Of a stretch of 36,228 bases of DNA, positions 3,517 to 11,577 are shown piece by piece. The notes beneath the pieces are model-generated. The model was given only the letters and a program-made list of their open reading frames with translations. It ran no database searches and had not been told where the DNA came from. Source of the DNA: a virus (lineage: Duplodnaviria > Heunggongvirae > Uroviricota > Caudoviricetes); IMG/VR virus record IMGVR_UViG_2778261451_000006; one strand, given 5' to 3'. Position 1 is the stretch's first letter. Each line of letters starts with the position of its first letter. Both the position numbers and the translations under genes were made by a program.

Positions 3517-4070
3517 TTGCGTAACTCCGATAACTCGTTAAAGCGTTCCATAAACATCCCGTAGGCATGGCCCGGTGCCAGTGGAATCACGTTGAACATC
3601 TCTGTTGCCGGGATACCTTCCAGTACAGGCCAGAAAGAGCCATCATCAAGCCCGAGATCGCGGCGTTCGGTTGCCAGCATGATGAGATCGGCATATTTCA
3701 CGGGCGTACTCATAACTGGGGGTAACCCGTATTTCTCACGGATTACGGCGTCTATTTTTTCTTCCATTTGTTTATAGTCAGGAAGAAGGCGTTTCAGTGG
3801 TGCGGGAATGTCCTGGCAATACGCTTCTGTTGCATCATGCATTAACGCTTCAAAAGCAAATTCCTGCGGCACCAGCTGGCTGCAAAGAACCGCATGTTGG
3901 GCGACGCTGTAGAAGTGCGAAAGATGACCGGCAAAGCGACAGATATTTGAAAGGGAAACCGCGATATCGTTAATATCGATGTCGTCTTTATTTATCCTGT
4001 CATAATAAAAATGCTTCCCGGAAAAAGTTTTAATAAATGACATTTTGTTCTCCACGTATATGCGCTGCAC
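3507..4070 (-). CDS. HD-domain phosphohydrolase (YfdR-like 5'-deoxynucleotidase)
   Basis: 187-aa ORF with HD-type metal-binding residues (H..H, HD, D spacing in ...CRFAGHLSHF...ALMHDATEAY...). Confidence 0.75.
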   Translation of the reverse strand: MQRIYVENKMSFIKTFSGKHFYYDRINKDDIDINDIAVSLSNICRFAGHLSHFYSVAQHAVLCSQLVPQEFAFEALMHDATEAYCQDIPAPLKRLLPDYKQMEEKIDAVIREKYGLPPVMSTPVKYADLIMLATERRDLGLDDGSFWPVLEGIPATEMFNVIPLAPGHAYGMFMERFNELSELRKCA

Positions 4071-4170: not shown

Positions 4171-4995
4171 TCAGGCGGTGAAAGTACCAATAAAGGTTTC
4201 TACTTTGCTGTCCTTGAATTTCTCAACAAGCAGATCACGAAATTCGTTAGCCATTTCTTCCTGCACCGCCTCCAGCTGAATAATGCGCAGAACCAGTACA
4301 GGACGATCGCCAGTGATAATACTGAGGCGTAATTTAAACGGACGTTCTTTCAGACCTTCAAACGGAACGCATTTAAATTCAAATGCCACTGGCATAATGT
4401 CTTTGGTCTTCGCTTCGACAGACTCCATCAGGGAGCGTTTGCCGCTGAAGTCATTATCTTCAAAATCAGCGGTCTGGTTTGCTTCAATCGTGATTTTACG
4501 GACAGCCGCAGCCGCTTTTGTTGCCTGAATAGCGTCACCATTAGCATCAAAGCCCACAAGATAGTCGGCCCAGTCTTCAATCCATTCTGCCAGTGACTTC
4601 TGGGAGTTACGCTCGCCGTTAACAGACAACAGAGCAGAGAACGGTGCTGTCTTTTTCAGTTTGAGTGTGGCGGTGTTATCTGCGTGACCTGGTTCATCAA
4701 TAGTACCCAGGTTAAGCACACTGACGGCACGCATATTATCAGCATCGATAAAGCAGCGGGTGCCTTCATCTGCAAGATCTTTAGAATAACGGGTAAAGTC
4801 ATCGATGCTGGCAGTGGAAAGCGCACCACGGAAACGGAAGCGATTTAAATTAAATTTTTCCAGATCATGAATGCGGAAATTCTCAGGCAATGCCACAGCA
4901 TCGGCACCAATCTTACTGATAATTTCATTAACACCCTGAGCAGAAATAAGGGCATGGATTTGATTAATTGCGGTTGCGTCTAAGTTCTGAGACAT
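4171..4995 (-). CDS. DUF2303-family prophage protein (YfdQ-like)
   Basis: 274-aa ORF; same size and position as YfdQ in the YfdP-T module; family recalled from memory. Confidence 0.65.
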
Positions 4996-5060
4996 AATAA
5001 GTCCTCACTATATAAAGATATTCAGTGATGAGATAAATAATCAGTTTATTAAGAACGATA

Positions 5061-5423
5061 TTAATGACCTGCTGCGCGTAGTTTTCCGTCAGGTTCACCG
5101 GCAAGAGTCAGTAATTGTCCCTGGTCTTCCTGCAGAATAGTCAGGCGACCACCGCGATTGACATACATCGGCGTTTCGGTGGTGTCTTCTTCAGAAATTT
5201 TCCCGCGGTTAGTCGGGCGAACATATGAGAGTTTGTGTTTGATTTTCACACGGTTCTCATCAAACGGTTCGATTTCCAGATTGAGTGAGACCTTCCCTTT
5301 GGTTTTCGTGTTCATCACACCGGAAGCGACTTCACTGAGAACTGCGCCGATTTTGGTTTCAAATACGCCGCCGTCCAGCTCCCCGATAAATGCCTGCACA
5401 TCAGTACTGCGTTCGCTAGCCAT
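5061..5423 (-). CDS. hypothetical early protein (YfdP-like), 120 aa
   Basis: Start moved to ATG at 5423 (MASERS...) with AGGAG 7 nt upstream; the 226-aa ORF-track version has a non-protein-like N-terminal extension. Confidence 0.6.
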   Translation of the reverse strand: MASERSTDVQAFIGELDGGVFETKIGAVLSEVASGVMNTKTKGKVSLNLEIEPFDENRVKIKHKLSYVRPTNRGKISEEDTTETPMYVNRGGRLTILQEDQGQLLTLAGEPDGKLRAAGH

Positions 5424-5891
5424 TTTGCTGCTCCTCATCATATCGACCCTGCAAGGTCGGTTGGTTTCTCCACAAAACAGAGAAGAACACCTGCGGTGGC
5501 AGCCGCCCGGATGGATTGGGTTATGAGCCCGTCGTCCGGTGATGCTCTTCTCTGTTTTGTAAAAAGGACGGTACCAGCCGTAAGCAAGGGTACAAACTGG
5601 TACCGCCAGGACTACACACAGCATAAAGTTGTGGTGCCGGGTGCCTCCCGGTGCCTGGCGAAGGTTGCACACCAGGCGGGTGGGTATCCACAGAAGGTCG
5701 ACTGTCAGCCTCAACCTTAACCCGCGTGCGCTGAGCCGCATTCACCACAACGCTAAGGATTCTCTCTGGTTGAAAATACTTAGCTGTTATGTGCCTGCTT
5801 TTAGCCACATCAGGCGAGGTGGACCTGGTTATTCCCCAACAACAAGGATTCGGTTAATCTGGTTATCCCCAACAACGCAAAAGGAAAAGAA

Positions 5892-6587: not shown

Positions 6588-6751
6588 TTGCTAACGAATC
6601 ATCCTGGACTTCATATGCCCCAGGCGGCTACTTCGTGGGCGTCCTGCCTGTTCGTTTTTGACATTTACTGACTGCTTACGACACATGCACCGTGTTGCAA
6701 CCAGATTTTGTTGTAATCCTGTAGTTGGTCTGGAACAAAAGATAAAATTAA

Positions 6752-6843: not shown

Positions 6844-7536
6844 TTAATTATGTCTCTTAAGGGTTTGCGACTGACTGATTAAGACCTTTCCAAAGACCAT
6901 GAATCGGTGTTCGTTTTCGCTAGTAATTCCCCATTCACGGTAAATCTGGTTATCAGAAATCACCAGCAGTTTGTCAGGAATCATTTGAAGTCTTTTAACG
7001 TATATTTTGTCATCAAAACCAAAGACATATATACCATCACCATCAAACTGATTGATGCTGACATCAACGAAGATGAGATCTCCTGGCTCAATGGTTGGAC
7101 ACATACTGTCCCCACGAACGTTGATAACTTTGATGTGATTGGCTGGTCGTCCGCCGAACATTGATACAGCATTATCAGTTCTGTATTCGATGGCATGAAT
7201 CACATCAATGACATCACCGCCCTGGATAAGGCCATTTCCCGCACTGGCACTGATATCCAGCATTTCAATACGGAACACATCCTTCACCTGCGCAACATCC
7301 TCATTATTACTGTTTTTATATACAGTATTACTTTTGTGGGCAGAGGTAAAGAGATCAGCAATATCAACACCTAAGCTCTTGGCAATATTATTCAGTGTTT
7401 GTTCGGTAAATTGTTTTTGCTTACCCGTTTCTAAGCGCGAGATGTTCGCCGCATCTACTCCTATCGCTTCAGCGAGATCGGCGATTTTCATGTTCTTCGC
7501 TTGGCGAAGTTGTCTGACTCGGTTTCCTATGTTCAT
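6844..7536 (-). CDS. cI: prophage repressor, CI-like (HTH plus S24 LexA-type peptidase domain)
   Basis: 230-aa ORF; N-terminal HTH (VRQLRQAKNMKIADLAEAIGVDAANISRLETGK); C-terminal S24 signature (RGDSMCPTIEPGDLIFVD ... VKRL); divergent from a cro-like gene. Confidence 0.9.
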   Translation of the reverse strand: MNIGNRVRQLRQAKNMKIADLAEAIGVDAANISRLETGKQKQFTEQTLNNIAKSLGVDIADLFTSAHKSNTVYKNSNNEDVAQVKDVFRIEMLDISASAGNGLIQGGDVIDVIHAIEYRTDNAVSMFGGRPANHIKVINVRGDSMCPTIEPGDLIFVDVSINQFDGDGIYVFGFDDKIYVKRLQMIPDKLLVISDNQIYREWGITSENEHRFMVFGKVLISQSQTLKRHN

Positions 7537-8782: not shown

Positions 8783-9724
8783 ATGAGCACTAAATTAACC
8801 GGCTATGTATGGGATGGTTGCGCTGCATCAGGCATGAAATTATCCAGCGTGGCAATTATGGCCCGCCTGGCTGATTTCAGTAATGACGAAGGTGTGTGCT
8901 GGCCATCAATTGAAACTATTGCCCGTCAGATTGGCGCGGGGATGAGCACCGTCAGAACGGCTATCGCACGGCTGGAAGCAGAAGGCTGGTTAACTCGTAA
9001 GGCGCGTCGCCAGGGTAACCGCAATGCGTCGAATGTTTATCAGCTTAACGTTGCGAAGCTTCAGGCAGCGGCATTTTCTCAACTGTCAGATTCTGACCCG
9101 TCAAAATCTGACGCATCAAAATCTGACCCGTCAAAATTTGATGCGTCGAAATCTGGCAAAAAAGCGGGTTTTCACCCGTCAGAATCTGGCGGGGATCCGT
9201 CAGTAAAATCAAAACATGATCCGTCAGATAAAAAACCTTCTCGTCCGGACGCTTCGCAACCGGATACGCAGACGGATGAACAGGATTTTTTAACTCGCCA
9301 TCCTGATGCGGTTGTATTCAGCCCTAAAAAGCGCCAGTGGGGAACGCAGGATGATTTGACCTGCGCACAGTGGCTCTGGAAAAAAATCATCGCCCTGTAC
9401 GAGCAGGCCGCCGAATGTGACGGTGAGGTGGTTCGTCCCAAAGAACCTAACTGGACAGCCTGGGCAAACGAAATTCGCCTGATGTGTGTGCAGGATGGTC
9501 GTACTCACAAACAAATCTGCGAGATGTACAGCCGCGTCAGCCGCGATCCGTTCTGGTGCCGTAACGTGCTCAGCCCGTCGAAGTTGCGGGAAAAATGGGA
9601 TGAGCTTTCCCTGCGCTTATCGCCGTCCGTCAGCACATACACAGAAAAACGTGAAGATCCGTACTTCAAAGCCAGTTACGACAACGTGGACTACAGCCAG
9701 ATCCCGGCAGGATTCAGGGGGTGA
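8783..9724 (+). CDS. replication initiation protein (lambda O-like) with embedded origin iterons
   Basis: 313-aa ORF; N-terminal HTH-like region; tandem DNA iterons inside the gene give the peptide repeats SDSDPSKSDASKSDPSKFDASKSG. Confidence 0.75.
   Translation: MSTKLTGYVWDGCAASGMKLSSVAIMARLADFSNDEGVCWPSIETIARQIGAGMSTVRTAIARLEAEGWLTRKARRQGNRNASNVYQLNVAKLQAAAFSQLSDSDPSKSDASKSDPSKFDASKSGKKAGFHPSESGGDPSVKSKHDPSDKKPSRPDASQPDTQTDEQDFLTRHPDAVVFSPKKRQWGTQDDLTCAQWLWKKIIALYEQAAECDGEVVRPKEPNWTAWANEIRLMCVQDGRTHKQICEMYSRVSRDPFWCRNVLSPSKLREKWDELSLRLSPSVSTYTEKREDPYFKASYDNVDYSQIPAGFRG
9092..9151 (+). repeat. tandem 15-bp iterons, putative ori
   Basis: Four contiguous copies (TCTGACCCGTCAAAA / TCTGACGCATCAAAA / TCTGACCCGTCAAAA / TTTGATGCGTCGAAA); degenerate copies and A-rich stretches follow to about 9240. 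Confidence 0.6.
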
Positions 9725-9726
9725 AC

Positions 9727-10215
9727 ATGAGTCTTTTGAATGACGTTCAGAAATTCATTGAAGCCCATCCGGGCTGTACTTCCGGAGACATTGCGGATGC
9801 TTTTGCAGGTTACTCACGGCAGCGCGTTCTGCAGTCAGCAAGCAAGTTACGTCAGAGTGGGCGTGTGGCTCACCGTTGTGAAGGGGATACACGCAGACAT
9901 TTCCCGCGGCTGACTGAGATACCGCAGGAGCCGGAACCGCAACCAGTTCGTGAATCCAGACCTGTGCGCAATTTCTATGTCGGCACTAACGATCCCCGGG
10001 TGATTTTGTGCCTGACCCGCCAGGCGGAAGAACTGGAGTCCAGGGGCTTATACCGTCGTGCTGCAACGGTGTGGATGGCGGCATTCCGTGAAAGCCACTC
10101 CCAGCAAGAGCGAAACAATTTTCTTGCGCGTCGTGAGCGGTGTTTACGGAAAAGCAGCAAGCGCGCTGTATCGGGTGAAGAGTGGTGTCTGTCAGGGAAT
10201 TACGTGGGGGCTTAA
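9727..10215 (+). CDS. hypothetical protein, possibly DNA-binding (winged-helix-like N-terminus)
   Basis: ORF directly after the replication gene; ATG at 9727 preferred over GTG at 9721; stop overlaps next start (TAATG). Confidence 0.5.
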   Translation: MSLLNDVQKFIEAHPGCTSGDIADAFAGYSRQRVLQSASKLRQSGRVAHRCEGDTRRHFPRLTEIPQEPEPQPVRESRPVRNFYVGTNDPRVILCLTRQAEELESRGLYRRAATVWMAAFRESHSQQERNNFLARRERCLRKSSKRAVSGEEWCLSGNYVGA

Positions 10216-10868
10216 TGAGTAATAAATATTGTCAGGCTCTGGTGGAACTGCGGAACAAACCAGCCCATGAACTGAAGGAAGTGGGCGATCAGTGGCGCAC
10301 GCCGGATAACATTTTCTGGGGAATTAACACCCTGTTTGGTCCGTTTGTTCTGGATCTGTTCACTGACGGTGATAACGCCAAATGTGCCGCGTATTACACG
10401 GCGGAAGACAACGCGCTGGCGCATGACTGGTCAGAACGTCTTGCGGAGCTTAAAGGTGCTGCCTTTGGTAATCCCCCATACAGCCGCACCAGTCAGCATG
10501 AGGGGCAATACATCACAGGCATGCGTTACATCATGAAGCATGCCAGTGCCATGCGTGATAAAGGTGGGCGCTATGTTTTCCTGATCAAAGCTGCCACCAG
10601 CGAAGTGTGGTGGCCGGAAGATGCAGATCATATTGCTTTTATTCGCGGGCGTATTGGTTTTGAACTGCCTGTCTGGTTTATCCCGAAAGACGAGAAGCAG
10701 GTGCCGACAGGAGCGTTCTTCGCTGGTGCTATTGCTGTTTTCGATAAGACCTGGAAGGGACCGGCAATCAGCTACATCGGGCGCGATGAACTTGAGACAT
10801 GTGGTGAGGCGTTTCTGGCGCAGGTTCGCCAGCAGGCAGAAAAACTGGTCAGGGAGATGGCGGCATGA
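10215..10868 (+). CDS. phage DNA N6-adenine methyltransferase (orphan, Dam-like)
   Basis: 217 aa from ATG at 10215; catalytic NPPY motif (AFGNPPYS); no adjacent restriction gene. Confidence 0.8.
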   Translation: MSNKYCQALVELRNKPAHELKEVGDQWRTPDNIFWGINTLFGPFVLDLFTDGDNAKCAAYYTAEDNALAHDWSERLAELKGAAFGNPPYSRTSQHEGQYITGMRYIMKHASAMRDKGGRYVFLIKAATSEVWWPEDADHIAFIRGRIGFELPVWFIPKDEKQVPTGAFFAGAIAVFDKTWKGPAISYIGRDELETCGEAFLAQVRQQAEKLVREMAA

Positions 10869-11191
10869 CGACGTTAACTCAATGCCAGCAGCAGGTGCTG
10901 GATATGCTGATTTCTTACCAGAAAGAACGTGGCTTCCCGCCAACCAATCAGGAGGTGGCAACCATGCTGGGATACCGTTCAGTGAATGCAGCGGTGGAGC
11001 ATCTTCGCGCACTGGAGAAAAAAGGCGTCATCACGATAAAGCGTGGCGTGGCCCGGGGGATCACGCTTCATACCGCGGTGAAGGACGACGACAGCGAAGC
11101 GGTCGGTATCATCCGCGCACTGCTTGCCGGTGAGGAGAACGCCAGGCTGCGTGCAGCCCACTGGTTACATGAGAGGGGCGTGAAAGTATGA
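10865..11191 (+). CDS. LexA N-terminal DNA-binding domain protein (no protease domain)
   Basis: 108-aa ORF; LTQCQQQVLDMLISYQKERGFPPTNQEVATMLGYRSVNAAVEHLRALEKKGVI parallels the LexA N-terminus ([53 protein letters not shown], recalled). Confidence 0.7.
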   Translation: MTTLTQCQQQVLDMLISYQKERGFPPTNQEVATMLGYRSVNAAVEHLRALEKKGVITIKRGVARGITLHTAVKDDDSEAVGIIRALLAGEENARLRAAHWLHERGVKV

Positions 11192-11577
11192 AGTTGATCC
11201 TTCCTTTCCCGCCCAGCGTGAACACGTACTGGCGACACCCCAACAAAGGGGCATTTGCTGGTAAGAGCCTGATAAGCGCGGCGGGACGCAAATTCCAGGG
11301 CGCGGCGTGTGCCGCCATCATTGAGCAGTTACGTCGTCTGCCGAAACCAACGTCGGCACCTGCTTCAGTGGAGATCGTGTTGTTTCCACCGGACAACCGG
11401 ATCCGCGATCTGGACAACTATAACAAGGCACTGTTTGACGCCCTGACCCACGCGGGTGTGTGGGAAGACGACAGCCAGGTGAAAAGAATGCTGGTGGAGT
11501 GGGGACCGGTTATCCCGGAAGGGAAGGTCGAGATAACTATCAGTAAGTACGAGAAAACGGCGGGTGCAGCCGCCTGA
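11188..11577 (+). CDS. rusA: Holliday junction resolvase RusA
   Basis: 129-aa ORF; RusA-like motifs (PPSVNTYWRH, RDLDNYNKALFDALTHAGVWEDDSQV). Confidence 0.85.
   Translation: MKLILPFPPSVNTYWRHPNKGAFAGKSLISAAGRKFQGAACAAIIEQLRRLPKPTSAPASVEIVLFPPDNRIRDLDNYNKALFDALTHAGVWEDDSQVKRMLVEWGPVIPEGKVEITISKYEKTAGAAA

Follow-up and report, generated by a model that had tools for sequence, protein, structure and literature searches.

The only characterised truncated phage homologue of LexA is gp6 of GIL01, a tectivirus of Bacillus thuringiensis, which recognises a site other than an SOS box and functions as an activator (PMC6182141). LexA itself dimerises via its C-terminal domain; its free N-terminal domain retains some SOS-box binding and repression, which is why it is degraded by ClpXP in the cell (PMC10584840). 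A further point of comparison is provided by the Gifsy prophages, whose induction is driven by a LexA-controlled dinI-antirepressor-irsA operon (PMC3121763). Here we analyse a stretch of 36,228 nucleotides from a virus of the class Caudoviricetes (IMG/VR record IMGVR_UViG_2778261451_000006; "the window" denotes this whole stretch). It contains a gene for a LexA-head protein of 108 amino acids, for which we use the name LexN. In our preferred reading, to which we give a probability of about 40%, LexN would be an uncleavable LexA surrogate, dimerised by its tail, which is made early in lytic growth and binds SOS-type operators.

The family as such is already annotated, and a phage LexA head without protease is known as a kind from gp6. 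Existing labels in RefSeq and phage records are "LexA family transcriptional regulator" and "LexA DNA binding domain protein", and PHROG 362 is described as "transcriptional repressor". A comparative study of Shiga-toxin (Stx) phages lists the protein as pham 237, "LexA family transcriptional regulator", with PF01726 (PMC8136144). Our literature searches found no experimental work on the enterobacterial LexN family. The helical tail of the protein, its two genomic settings, an SOS box within cI and the occurrence of LexN in Gifsy-like SOS operons appear to be undescribed.

The gene and the structural elements of its product are located in the window as follows (dN/dS: ratio of nonsynonymous to synonymous substitution rates; pLDDT: predicted local distance difference test score).

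10865–11191, plus strand: LexN open reading frame (ORF), 108 codons from ATG to TGA, stop codon included (PHROG 362, E = 1.4e-59)
10865–11074, plus strand: LexA-type winged helix-turn-helix (HTH), residues 1–70, with helices 6–22, 28–35 and 40–52 and strands 56–59 and 65–68
10979–11020, plus strand: recognition helix SVNAAVEHLRALEK, residues 39–52, assigned by alignment and dN/dS
11075–11089, plus strand: acidic hinge of low confidence (pLDDT below 50), residues 71–75 (AVKDD), running on into Asp76-Ser77-Glu78
11090–11188, plus strand: two-helix tail conserved in the family, residues 76–108 (helices 75–87 and 93–103), from the AlphaFold model and the alignment

The first-pass annotation of this DNA had proposed that the 108-residue protein resembles the N-terminal winged helix of LexA and has no S24 protease domain. 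Both statements were borne out. In the profile search that it had suggested, residues 1–65 of LexN cover the complete Pfam profile LexA_DNA_bind (PF01726, positions 1–65 of 65) with an E-value of 2.9e-19 and a score of 69 bits, compared to a gathering threshold of 23.7. A phmmer search of the PDB aligned residues 2–70 without gaps to residues 2–70 of the N-terminal domain of E. coli LexA (PDB-entry 1lea, E = 6.5e-16). The sequence identity to E. coli LexA is approximately 50% over residues 1–69. The AlphaFold model of LexN (mean pLDDT 75) shows three helices and a two-stranded wing, as expected for this fold, and a superposition with DNA-bound LexA (PDB-entry 3jso) resulted in a root-mean-square deviation of 1.3 Å for 68 residues at 50% identity. 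Over its full length (residues 1–108) LexN matches positions 1–106 of 106 of PHROG 362.

The protein ends at residue 108, and the Pfam search returned no match to Peptidase_S24 (PF00717). Against the NCBIfam equivalog profile for lexA (TIGR00498), LexN scores 70.6 bits, below the cut-off of 110.95, and is aligned with positions 1–91 of 203 only. The lack of a protease domain supports the earlier claim that RecA-stimulated self-cleavage cannot inactivate the protein. LexN thereby corresponds to the description of a gp6-type truncated phage LexA homologue, i.e. a phage-encoded LexA head alone, without protease. A PADLOC run on LexN gave only a marginal match to a CARF model (E = 3.6e-4), which reflects the winged-helix fold and is uninformative.

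The conserved C-terminal helical tail had been missed by the first-pass annotation. In the alignment the hinge AVKDD is equivalent in position to the hinge QEEEEG of LexA, and it is followed by the short helical hairpin. Homologues of 104–135 amino acids, down to approximately 40% identity, show the same tail pattern. Because the tail is kept in these homologues and dN/dS is as low as 0.069 (see below), LexN is not a broken lexA. Since LexA dimerises through its C-terminal domain, which LexN is without, the hairpin probably replaces the S24 domain as the dimerisation element. Another route to a "dimeric", uncleavable LexA-like binder would be represented by the proteins P0128, P0129, P0137 and P0139, which consist of two tandem LexA heads and contain no S24 domain.

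A role of the tail as a pseudo-substrate that blocks S24 active sites was also considered. The idea originated from a HMMER alignment in which the LexN tail is paired with the cleavage loop of LexA (VGIIRALLAGE versus LPLVGRVAAGE). Residues Ala88-Gly89 of LexN are aligned near the Ala84-Gly85 cleavage site of LexA, and LexN has no active site. This role was ruled out, because the pair is not conserved in the family (AN, AK, VG, ER, TR or DD in relatives) and the region is predicted to be helical.

LexN was found at an identity of at least 95% in 2233 of 5426 complete E. coli genomes (41%). Its carriers include Stx2a, Stx2c and Stx2k converting phages as well as Shigella serotype-converting phages. 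The 138 fetched copies comprise 82 alleles with a dS of 0.107. For these alleles dN/dS is 0.069 overall, 0.015 for the head and 0.157 for the tail, and it drops to 0.006 for codons 38–52, which encode the recognition helix. These values clearly point to strong purifying selection on a functional gene. LexN is dispensable in some prophages: three loci (L099, L108 and L140) show a precise Dam-RusA junction at approximately position 6672 or 7068, with the ORF absent. Many copies in the databases are frameshifted or fused.

The features that determine the expression of LexN and the sites on which it might act are listed below.

6844–7536, minus strand: cI, the true maintenance repressor, with HTH and Peptidase_S24 domains
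7308–7327, no strand assigned: SOS (LexA) box TACTGTTTTTATATACAGTA, the only strong one in the window (27.4 bits), at cI codons 70–77
10182–10868, plus strand: Dam methyltransferase gene (PF05869), 5' neighbour of LexN
10852–10868, plus strand: Shine-Dalgarno sequence GGGAG (10852–10856, 8 nt before the start) and ATGA in which the dam stop and the LexN start overlap, from reading of the sequence
11188–11191, plus strand: ATGA overlap of the LexN stop with the rusA start
11188–11577, plus strand: RusA Holliday-junction resolvase gene (PF05866), 3' neighbour of LexN

The ATGA overlaps on both sides indicate that LexN is translationally coupled to dam and rusA. We found no promoter-like site on the plus strand between 8400 and 11190 and no terminator on the plus strand ahead of 13079. 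LexN is therefore assigned to the delayed-early pR/nin transcript; it is located 3.3 kb downstream of cI in the pR operon, between dam and rusA. From this position it should be made in lytic growth and not in the lysogen. LexN is not a stand-in for the prophage repressor. This role belongs to the S24-type CI at 6844–7536, and LexN, which lies outside the immunity region, is not a maintenance repressor of the CI type. LexA-like autoregulation would call for an SOS box upstream of LexN; none of at least 8 bits was found there in the window.

To score SOS boxes we employed a 20-mer matrix derived from E. coli boxes of the literature; the scores are approximate. The known dinI box of Gifsy-2 (PMC3121763) scores 24.3 bits with this matrix, and the maximum over 200 shuffles of the window was 18.6 bits. 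A search of the prophage for SOS-box-like sites, as proposed in the first-pass annotation, yielded the single box in cI, which with 27.4 bits ranks with the highest-scoring genuine SOS boxes. It falls in the stretch of cI that codes for the linker joining the HTH to the S24 domain. The box is present in all of the 80 fetched copies of this cI. Alleles with 92% identity retain it: they have a Tyr-to-Cys change, but both CTGT and ACAG are unaltered. In a cI of 72% identity (locus L181) the box again scores 27.4 bits: the linker is otherwise diverged, but CTGT and ACAG are still there, encoded in the retained Thr-Val and Asn-Ser codons. It follows that selection acts on the box at the DNA level. 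Host LexA should bind within cI at 7308–7327.

LexN co-occurs with the cI of the window in 13 of 13 phage records and in 50 of the 57 IMG/VR loci with enough flanking sequence; the remaining seven are deletions. The phage with the 72%-identical cI carries a LexN of 48% identity. Seen from the other side, about a third of the LexN loci (approximately 28 of 80) have the cI with the box. Counts and percentages of LexN loci refer to the closest 80 IMG/VR loci.

Two further functions of the cI box were tried and rejected. A promoter overlapping the box is not supported, with no consensus promoter on either strand. An SOS-induced C-terminal fragment of CI would have to start at Met92, which has no ribosome-binding site and is a valine in the 72%-identical cI. 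A different, recurrent SOS box TACTGTAAAAATAAACAGTG of 22.8 bits is located 3.9 to 6.5 kb downstream of LexN in locus L006 (14038–14057) and in approximately 30 other LexN loci. It spans codons 3–9 of a gene for a DNA methyltransferase, located upstream of the lysis genes, and is absent from the window.

The DNA-contacting residues of LexA are Ser39, Asn41, Ala42, Glu44 and Glu45 (PMC3091678). LexN keeps four of these five (Ser39, Asn41, Ala42 and Glu45), and Glu44 is replaced by valine. Residues 38–47 are identical to E. coli LexA at eight of ten positions. Family-wide, Ser39 is invariant and Asn41 nearly so, and positions 42–45 are variable. The recognition helix is nearly invariant over the 82 E. 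coli-lineage alleles, which reside in unrelated phage backbones; this suggests that its target is provided by the host or by the small module with which the gene travels, where hardly any DNA is non-coding. Binding of LexN to LexA-type operators, as put forward in the first-pass annotation, is plausible in view of the four conserved contacts. Specificity for SOS boxes is putative, with a recognition helix that is not specially conserved in the family as a whole.

Searches for CTGT-Nx-ACAG, ACAG-Nx-CTGT and ACTGT-Nx-ACAGT with x = 0–20 gave scattered intragenic sites with GC-rich spacers, none of them operator-like. The palindrome search, which covered the early-right region both of the window and of a divergent Citrobacter locus, brought up nothing beyond weak pairs and the ori iterons of the O-like gene. 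In this Citrobacter prophage (L166, 9517–10318, compared with 9721–11188 of the window) the PerC-like protein is 48% and LexN 66% identical, and the flanks are 80–91% identical. The Citrobacter LexN has four changes in the recognition helix. The PerC-like regulator and LexN may have been exchanged as a unit, and the changes would fit a family specificity that is able to drift, by analogy with gp6 of GIL01.

Among the 80 loci RusA directly follows LexN in 78, and the preceding gene is Dam in 51 and PerC in 24; the surrounding cI, replication and Q modules vary. Distant homologues keep a recognisable neighbourhood and fall into two genomic classes. Class A has an S24-type CI; the gene ahead of LexN is that of a DNA methyltransferase, PerC or the replication gene. 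It includes the window, mEp390 and the loci of P0084, P0122, P0166 and P0125.

Class B consists of four independent lineages: L164 (P0132); L173 (P0138); L174, L182 and L163 (P0133); and L178 (P0145). Here a terminator, a sigma-70 promoter and a strong SOS box stand at the head of the operon; the box scores 20.7 bits in L164, 27.0 in L173, 27.8 in L174, 25.7 in L182 and 26.6 in L178. A small conserved ORF of 75–96 amino acids precedes LexN, which is usually followed by an ORF of 66–67 amino acids (three of the four lineages). LexN is the third gene of the operon, or the second in L164 and L173. The first gene encodes DinI in one lineage (L174, L182 and L163) and is a 95-residue ORF in L178. 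Where the phage repressor could be read (L164, L173 and L182), it is short, approximately 128–143 amino acids, and has no S24 domain. The ORF of 66–67 amino acids is homologous to an ORF of Gifsy-2. The small ORFs in front of LexN are homologous to each other and only approximately 20% identical to GftA; going by their position only, they might encode antirepressors. The window itself does not have the layout of a Gifsy-type operon, as it has an S24-type CI and no SOS box upstream of LexN. Gifsy IrsA was examined as a possible LexN homologue and ruled out, since IrsA is a DUF1367 protein.

Further SOS boxes were observed around the class B operons. In the Klebsiella phage locus L163 a strong box (3994–4013) is located 16 bp upstream of a two-gene unit on the minus strand that includes a KwaB-like protein (Kiwa defence). 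In L164 a strong box (5560–5579) lies between a minus-strand pair resembling a CdiA-CT RNase and CdiI and the LexN operon. Judging from these sites, prophage defence or toxin genes may be SOS-controlled. The SOS box of L178 is double (4907–4942; 26.6 and 17.5 bits) and lies ahead of the 95-residue ORF (4975–5262), which has a Pfam match to RecA_C. This ORF occupies the slot held by DinI in other lineages and may be another RecA-directed SOS modulator.

Based on these observations we propose the following mechanism for LexN as a LexA surrogate. The protein combines a LexA DNA-binding head, an acidic hinge and a short helical hairpin, and is a delayed-early product. With the hairpin taking the dimerising place of the S24 domain, activated RecA could not inactivate it. 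Upon prophage induction or infection LexN would be produced from the rightward early (pR/nin) transcript and would occupy CTGT-type SOS operators as an uncleavable substitute for LexA. In this way LexA-type repression would be re-imposed while host LexA undergoes cleavage. Potential targets are host SOS promoters, prophage genes controlled by SOS boxes and the cI box of this prophage. In a more speculative step, LexN that occupies the cI box after cleavage of host LexA might hinder renewed transcription of cI from PRM or PRE and thus favour commitment to lysis. For the class B phages the mechanism would mean feedback of LexN on the SOS operon to which it belongs. The four retained contact residues, the SOS box in cI and the SOS-box operons around distant homologues connect LexN with the SOS response. 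The feasibility of such a surrogate is supported by the residual repressor activity known for the free LexA head (PMC10584840). The first-pass idea of an uninducible repressor gains from this activity; it loses from the example of gp6, which binds a non-SOS site and activates (PMC6182141).

A broader version of this proposal sees LexN as the uncleavable "closing switch" of an old, modular toolkit by which phages steer the SOS response. In phages whose repressor is short and non-cleavable, LexN would be co-transcribed from the SOS box with DinI (in one lineage) and with the small ORF in the antirepressor position, and would shut down its own operon as well as the host regulon. In phages with a cleavable CI (the window and several Stx2 phages) it would come from pR and act on the box embedded in cI, and the resulting block of renewed repressor synthesis would lock in lysis. 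We regard this version as rather unlikely.

Several observations weigh against LexN as a LexA surrogate. Approximately 40% of the LexN loci have no SOS box of at least 15 bits within 10 kb. The cI box persists in L099, L108 and L140, where LexN is precisely deleted, and therefore does not depend on LexN. Glu44 is replaced in every member of the family, and Glu45 is lost in five of 13 lineages, including P0133 and P0138, both of which have strong upstream SOS boxes. Over the family the recognition helix is 54% conserved, compared with 53% for the rest of the head, unlike in true LexA orthologues. In the Citrobacter allele P0084 the residues NAAVEH are replaced by NTIAGH, and its locus is without an SOS box. 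The upstream boxes of class B are fully explained by control of the antirepressor by host LexA, and the slot of Gifsy-2 that is equivalent to LexN is filled by the unrelated IrsA/DUF1367. Finally, the only characterised protein of this kind, gp6, is an activator with a non-SOS site.

The last point leads to an alternative that we consider doubtful and nevertheless worth serious attention: LexN could be a dedicated phage regulator like gp6, diverged from LexA specificity, which from a phage-specific, non-SOS operator activates or silences the promoter of a phage or moron gene. gp6 binds GaCACAnnTGTGaC and activates the late promoter (PMC6182141). The family-wide loss of Glu44, the variability of positions 42–45 and the many LexN carriers without a nearby SOS box are consistent with such a regulator, as is P0084, in which four helix changes occur within an otherwise conserved module and the PerC-like neighbour (48% identity) was swapped along. 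This proposal is weakened by the palindrome and half-site searches, which gave no candidate operator in a module with almost no intergenic DNA. The late genes of this phage are governed by the Q antiterminator, so no activator is needed, and the helix of this lineage equals that of LexA at eight of ten positions and is invariant across unrelated backbones. On a narrower, unlikely reading, LexN would be a commitment factor confined to action in cis: bound at the cI box it would form a roadblock for cI transcription, and the host SOS regulon would not be affected. The only SOS box of the window is indeed in cI and is kept in the 72%-identical cI with its diverged linker. Moreover, LexN accompanies 88–100% of the copies of this cI, with several different replication modules in between and a distance of 1.4 to 4.2 kb from cI to LexN. 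This co-occurrence may be explained by linkage and shared ancestry alone; approximately two thirds of the LexN loci have other cI alleles without the box, and the box survives deletion of LexN. LexA-type proteins are not known as strong roadblocks to elongation.

It is decidedly unlikely that LexN is not a transcription factor at all and serves its neighbours, i.e. the upstream DNA methyltransferase and the downstream RusA and DUF968 nucleases, as a DNA-targeting or accessory partner. The proximity is striking in numbers: RusA follows in 78 of 80 loci, most lineages with identities down to approximately 40% show this order as well, the methyltransferase is immediately upstream in the window, L170, L176, L180 and L181 (in L173 across a terminator and a small ORF), and the start and stop codons of LexN overlap the adjoining genes. 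Gene order in nin regions, however, reflects a shared transcript and not complexes of proteins, and neither RusA nor Dam requires a partner. The precise deletions of LexN leave dam and rusA intact, and neither mEp390 nor the class with SOS-box operons has an adjacent methylase. A decaying remnant of a captured lexA with no present function is very unlikely. The many frameshifted or fused copies, the dispensability of LexN in some prophages and the lack of an effect on induction of a non-polar deletion of irsA, the Gifsy gene in the equivalent slot (PMC3121763), would agree with decay. They are opposed by the dN/dS of the 82 alleles (0.069 overall and 0.015 for the DNA-binding domain at a dS of 0.107), by the intact copies that 41% of the complete E. 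coli genomes carry and by a tail that is conserved in lineages of approximately 40% identity.

The prophage is located at a tRNA-Thr gene (thrW, 1369–1444), beside a host gene of the aldehyde dehydrogenase family, and is SfII-like, with 97% identity over a 2.7-kb test region to Shigella phage SfII, several Stx2a phages and other lambdoid phages. The early-right region contains, in this order, cI, cro, a CP76-type cII, an ORF without known function, an O-like replication gene with ori iterons, the PerC-like gene, Dam, LexN, RusA, a KilA-N protein, a DUF968/HNH nuclease and the Q antiterminator. In the O-like gene (8783–9724) iterated inverted repeats, GTCAGATTCTGAC / GTCAAAATCTGAC, at 9085–9147 coincide with a PSKSDxSKSD peptide repeat; they are presumably the replication origin. 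Another prophage with a LexN homologue (L173, 13794–15390) encodes AcrVA2-like and Cas1-family proteins between Q and the lysis genes.

If LexN is an uncleavable LexA surrogate, the duration and strength of SOS gene expression after DNA damage or antibiotics would be altered. The firing of co-resident prophages, SOS-controlled defence or toxin genes and the commitment to lysis would be affected as well, with a bearing on Shiga-toxin release and gene transfer. As a closing switch, LexN, which is present in approximately 40% of E. coli genomes, would influence SOS dynamics, prophage cross-talk and the induction of Shiga-toxin phages. As a private regulator, LexN would be the second independent case after gp6 of GIL01 in which a phage re-uses the LexA head for its own circuit. 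The natural variants L099, L108 and L140 could be used as ready-made LexN deletion controls.

The closest described protein, gp6 of GIL01, shares with LexN the phage-encoded LexA winged helix without S24 domain, early lytic expression and a setting within an SOS-governed switch. It differs in that it has no C-terminal helical tail, binds a palindrome of its own and not the LexA box of the host, and switches on the late promoter. LexN, on the other hand, occurs in enterobacterial lambdoid phages with Q-controlled late genes, has a LexA-like recognition helix and is so far a predicted binder. With host LexA (TIGR00498; PDB-entries 1lea and 3jso) it shares the N-terminal fold, the acidic character of the hinge and four of the five residues that contact DNA. 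Unlike LexA, it has no S24 domain, no Ser119/Lys156 dyad, no dimer interface of the C-terminal domain and, in the window, no SOS box of its own, and it carries the E44V exchange. The autocleavage fragment LexA(1–84) is likewise a free LexA head, which binds SOS boxes weakly and represses (PMC10584840). This fragment exposes a ClpX degron and is destroyed, whereas LexN, which ends in ...RGVKV, may differ in this respect and has an additional helical hairpin that may stabilise a dimer. The dinI-antirepressor-irsA operon of Gifsy (PMC3121763) has the same layout of terminator, promoter, SOS box, small ORF and slot gene as the class B operons. In Gifsy-2, however, the slot gene encodes IrsA (DUF1367) and not a LexA head, and the phage of the window has an S24-type CI and no antirepressor. 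Like GIL01 gp7 and the DinI/PsiB-type modulators of phages and plasmids, LexN would belong to the proteins of mobile elements that damp or reshape the host SOS response; those act on LexA or RecA by protein contact, whereas LexN is predicted to act on DNA.

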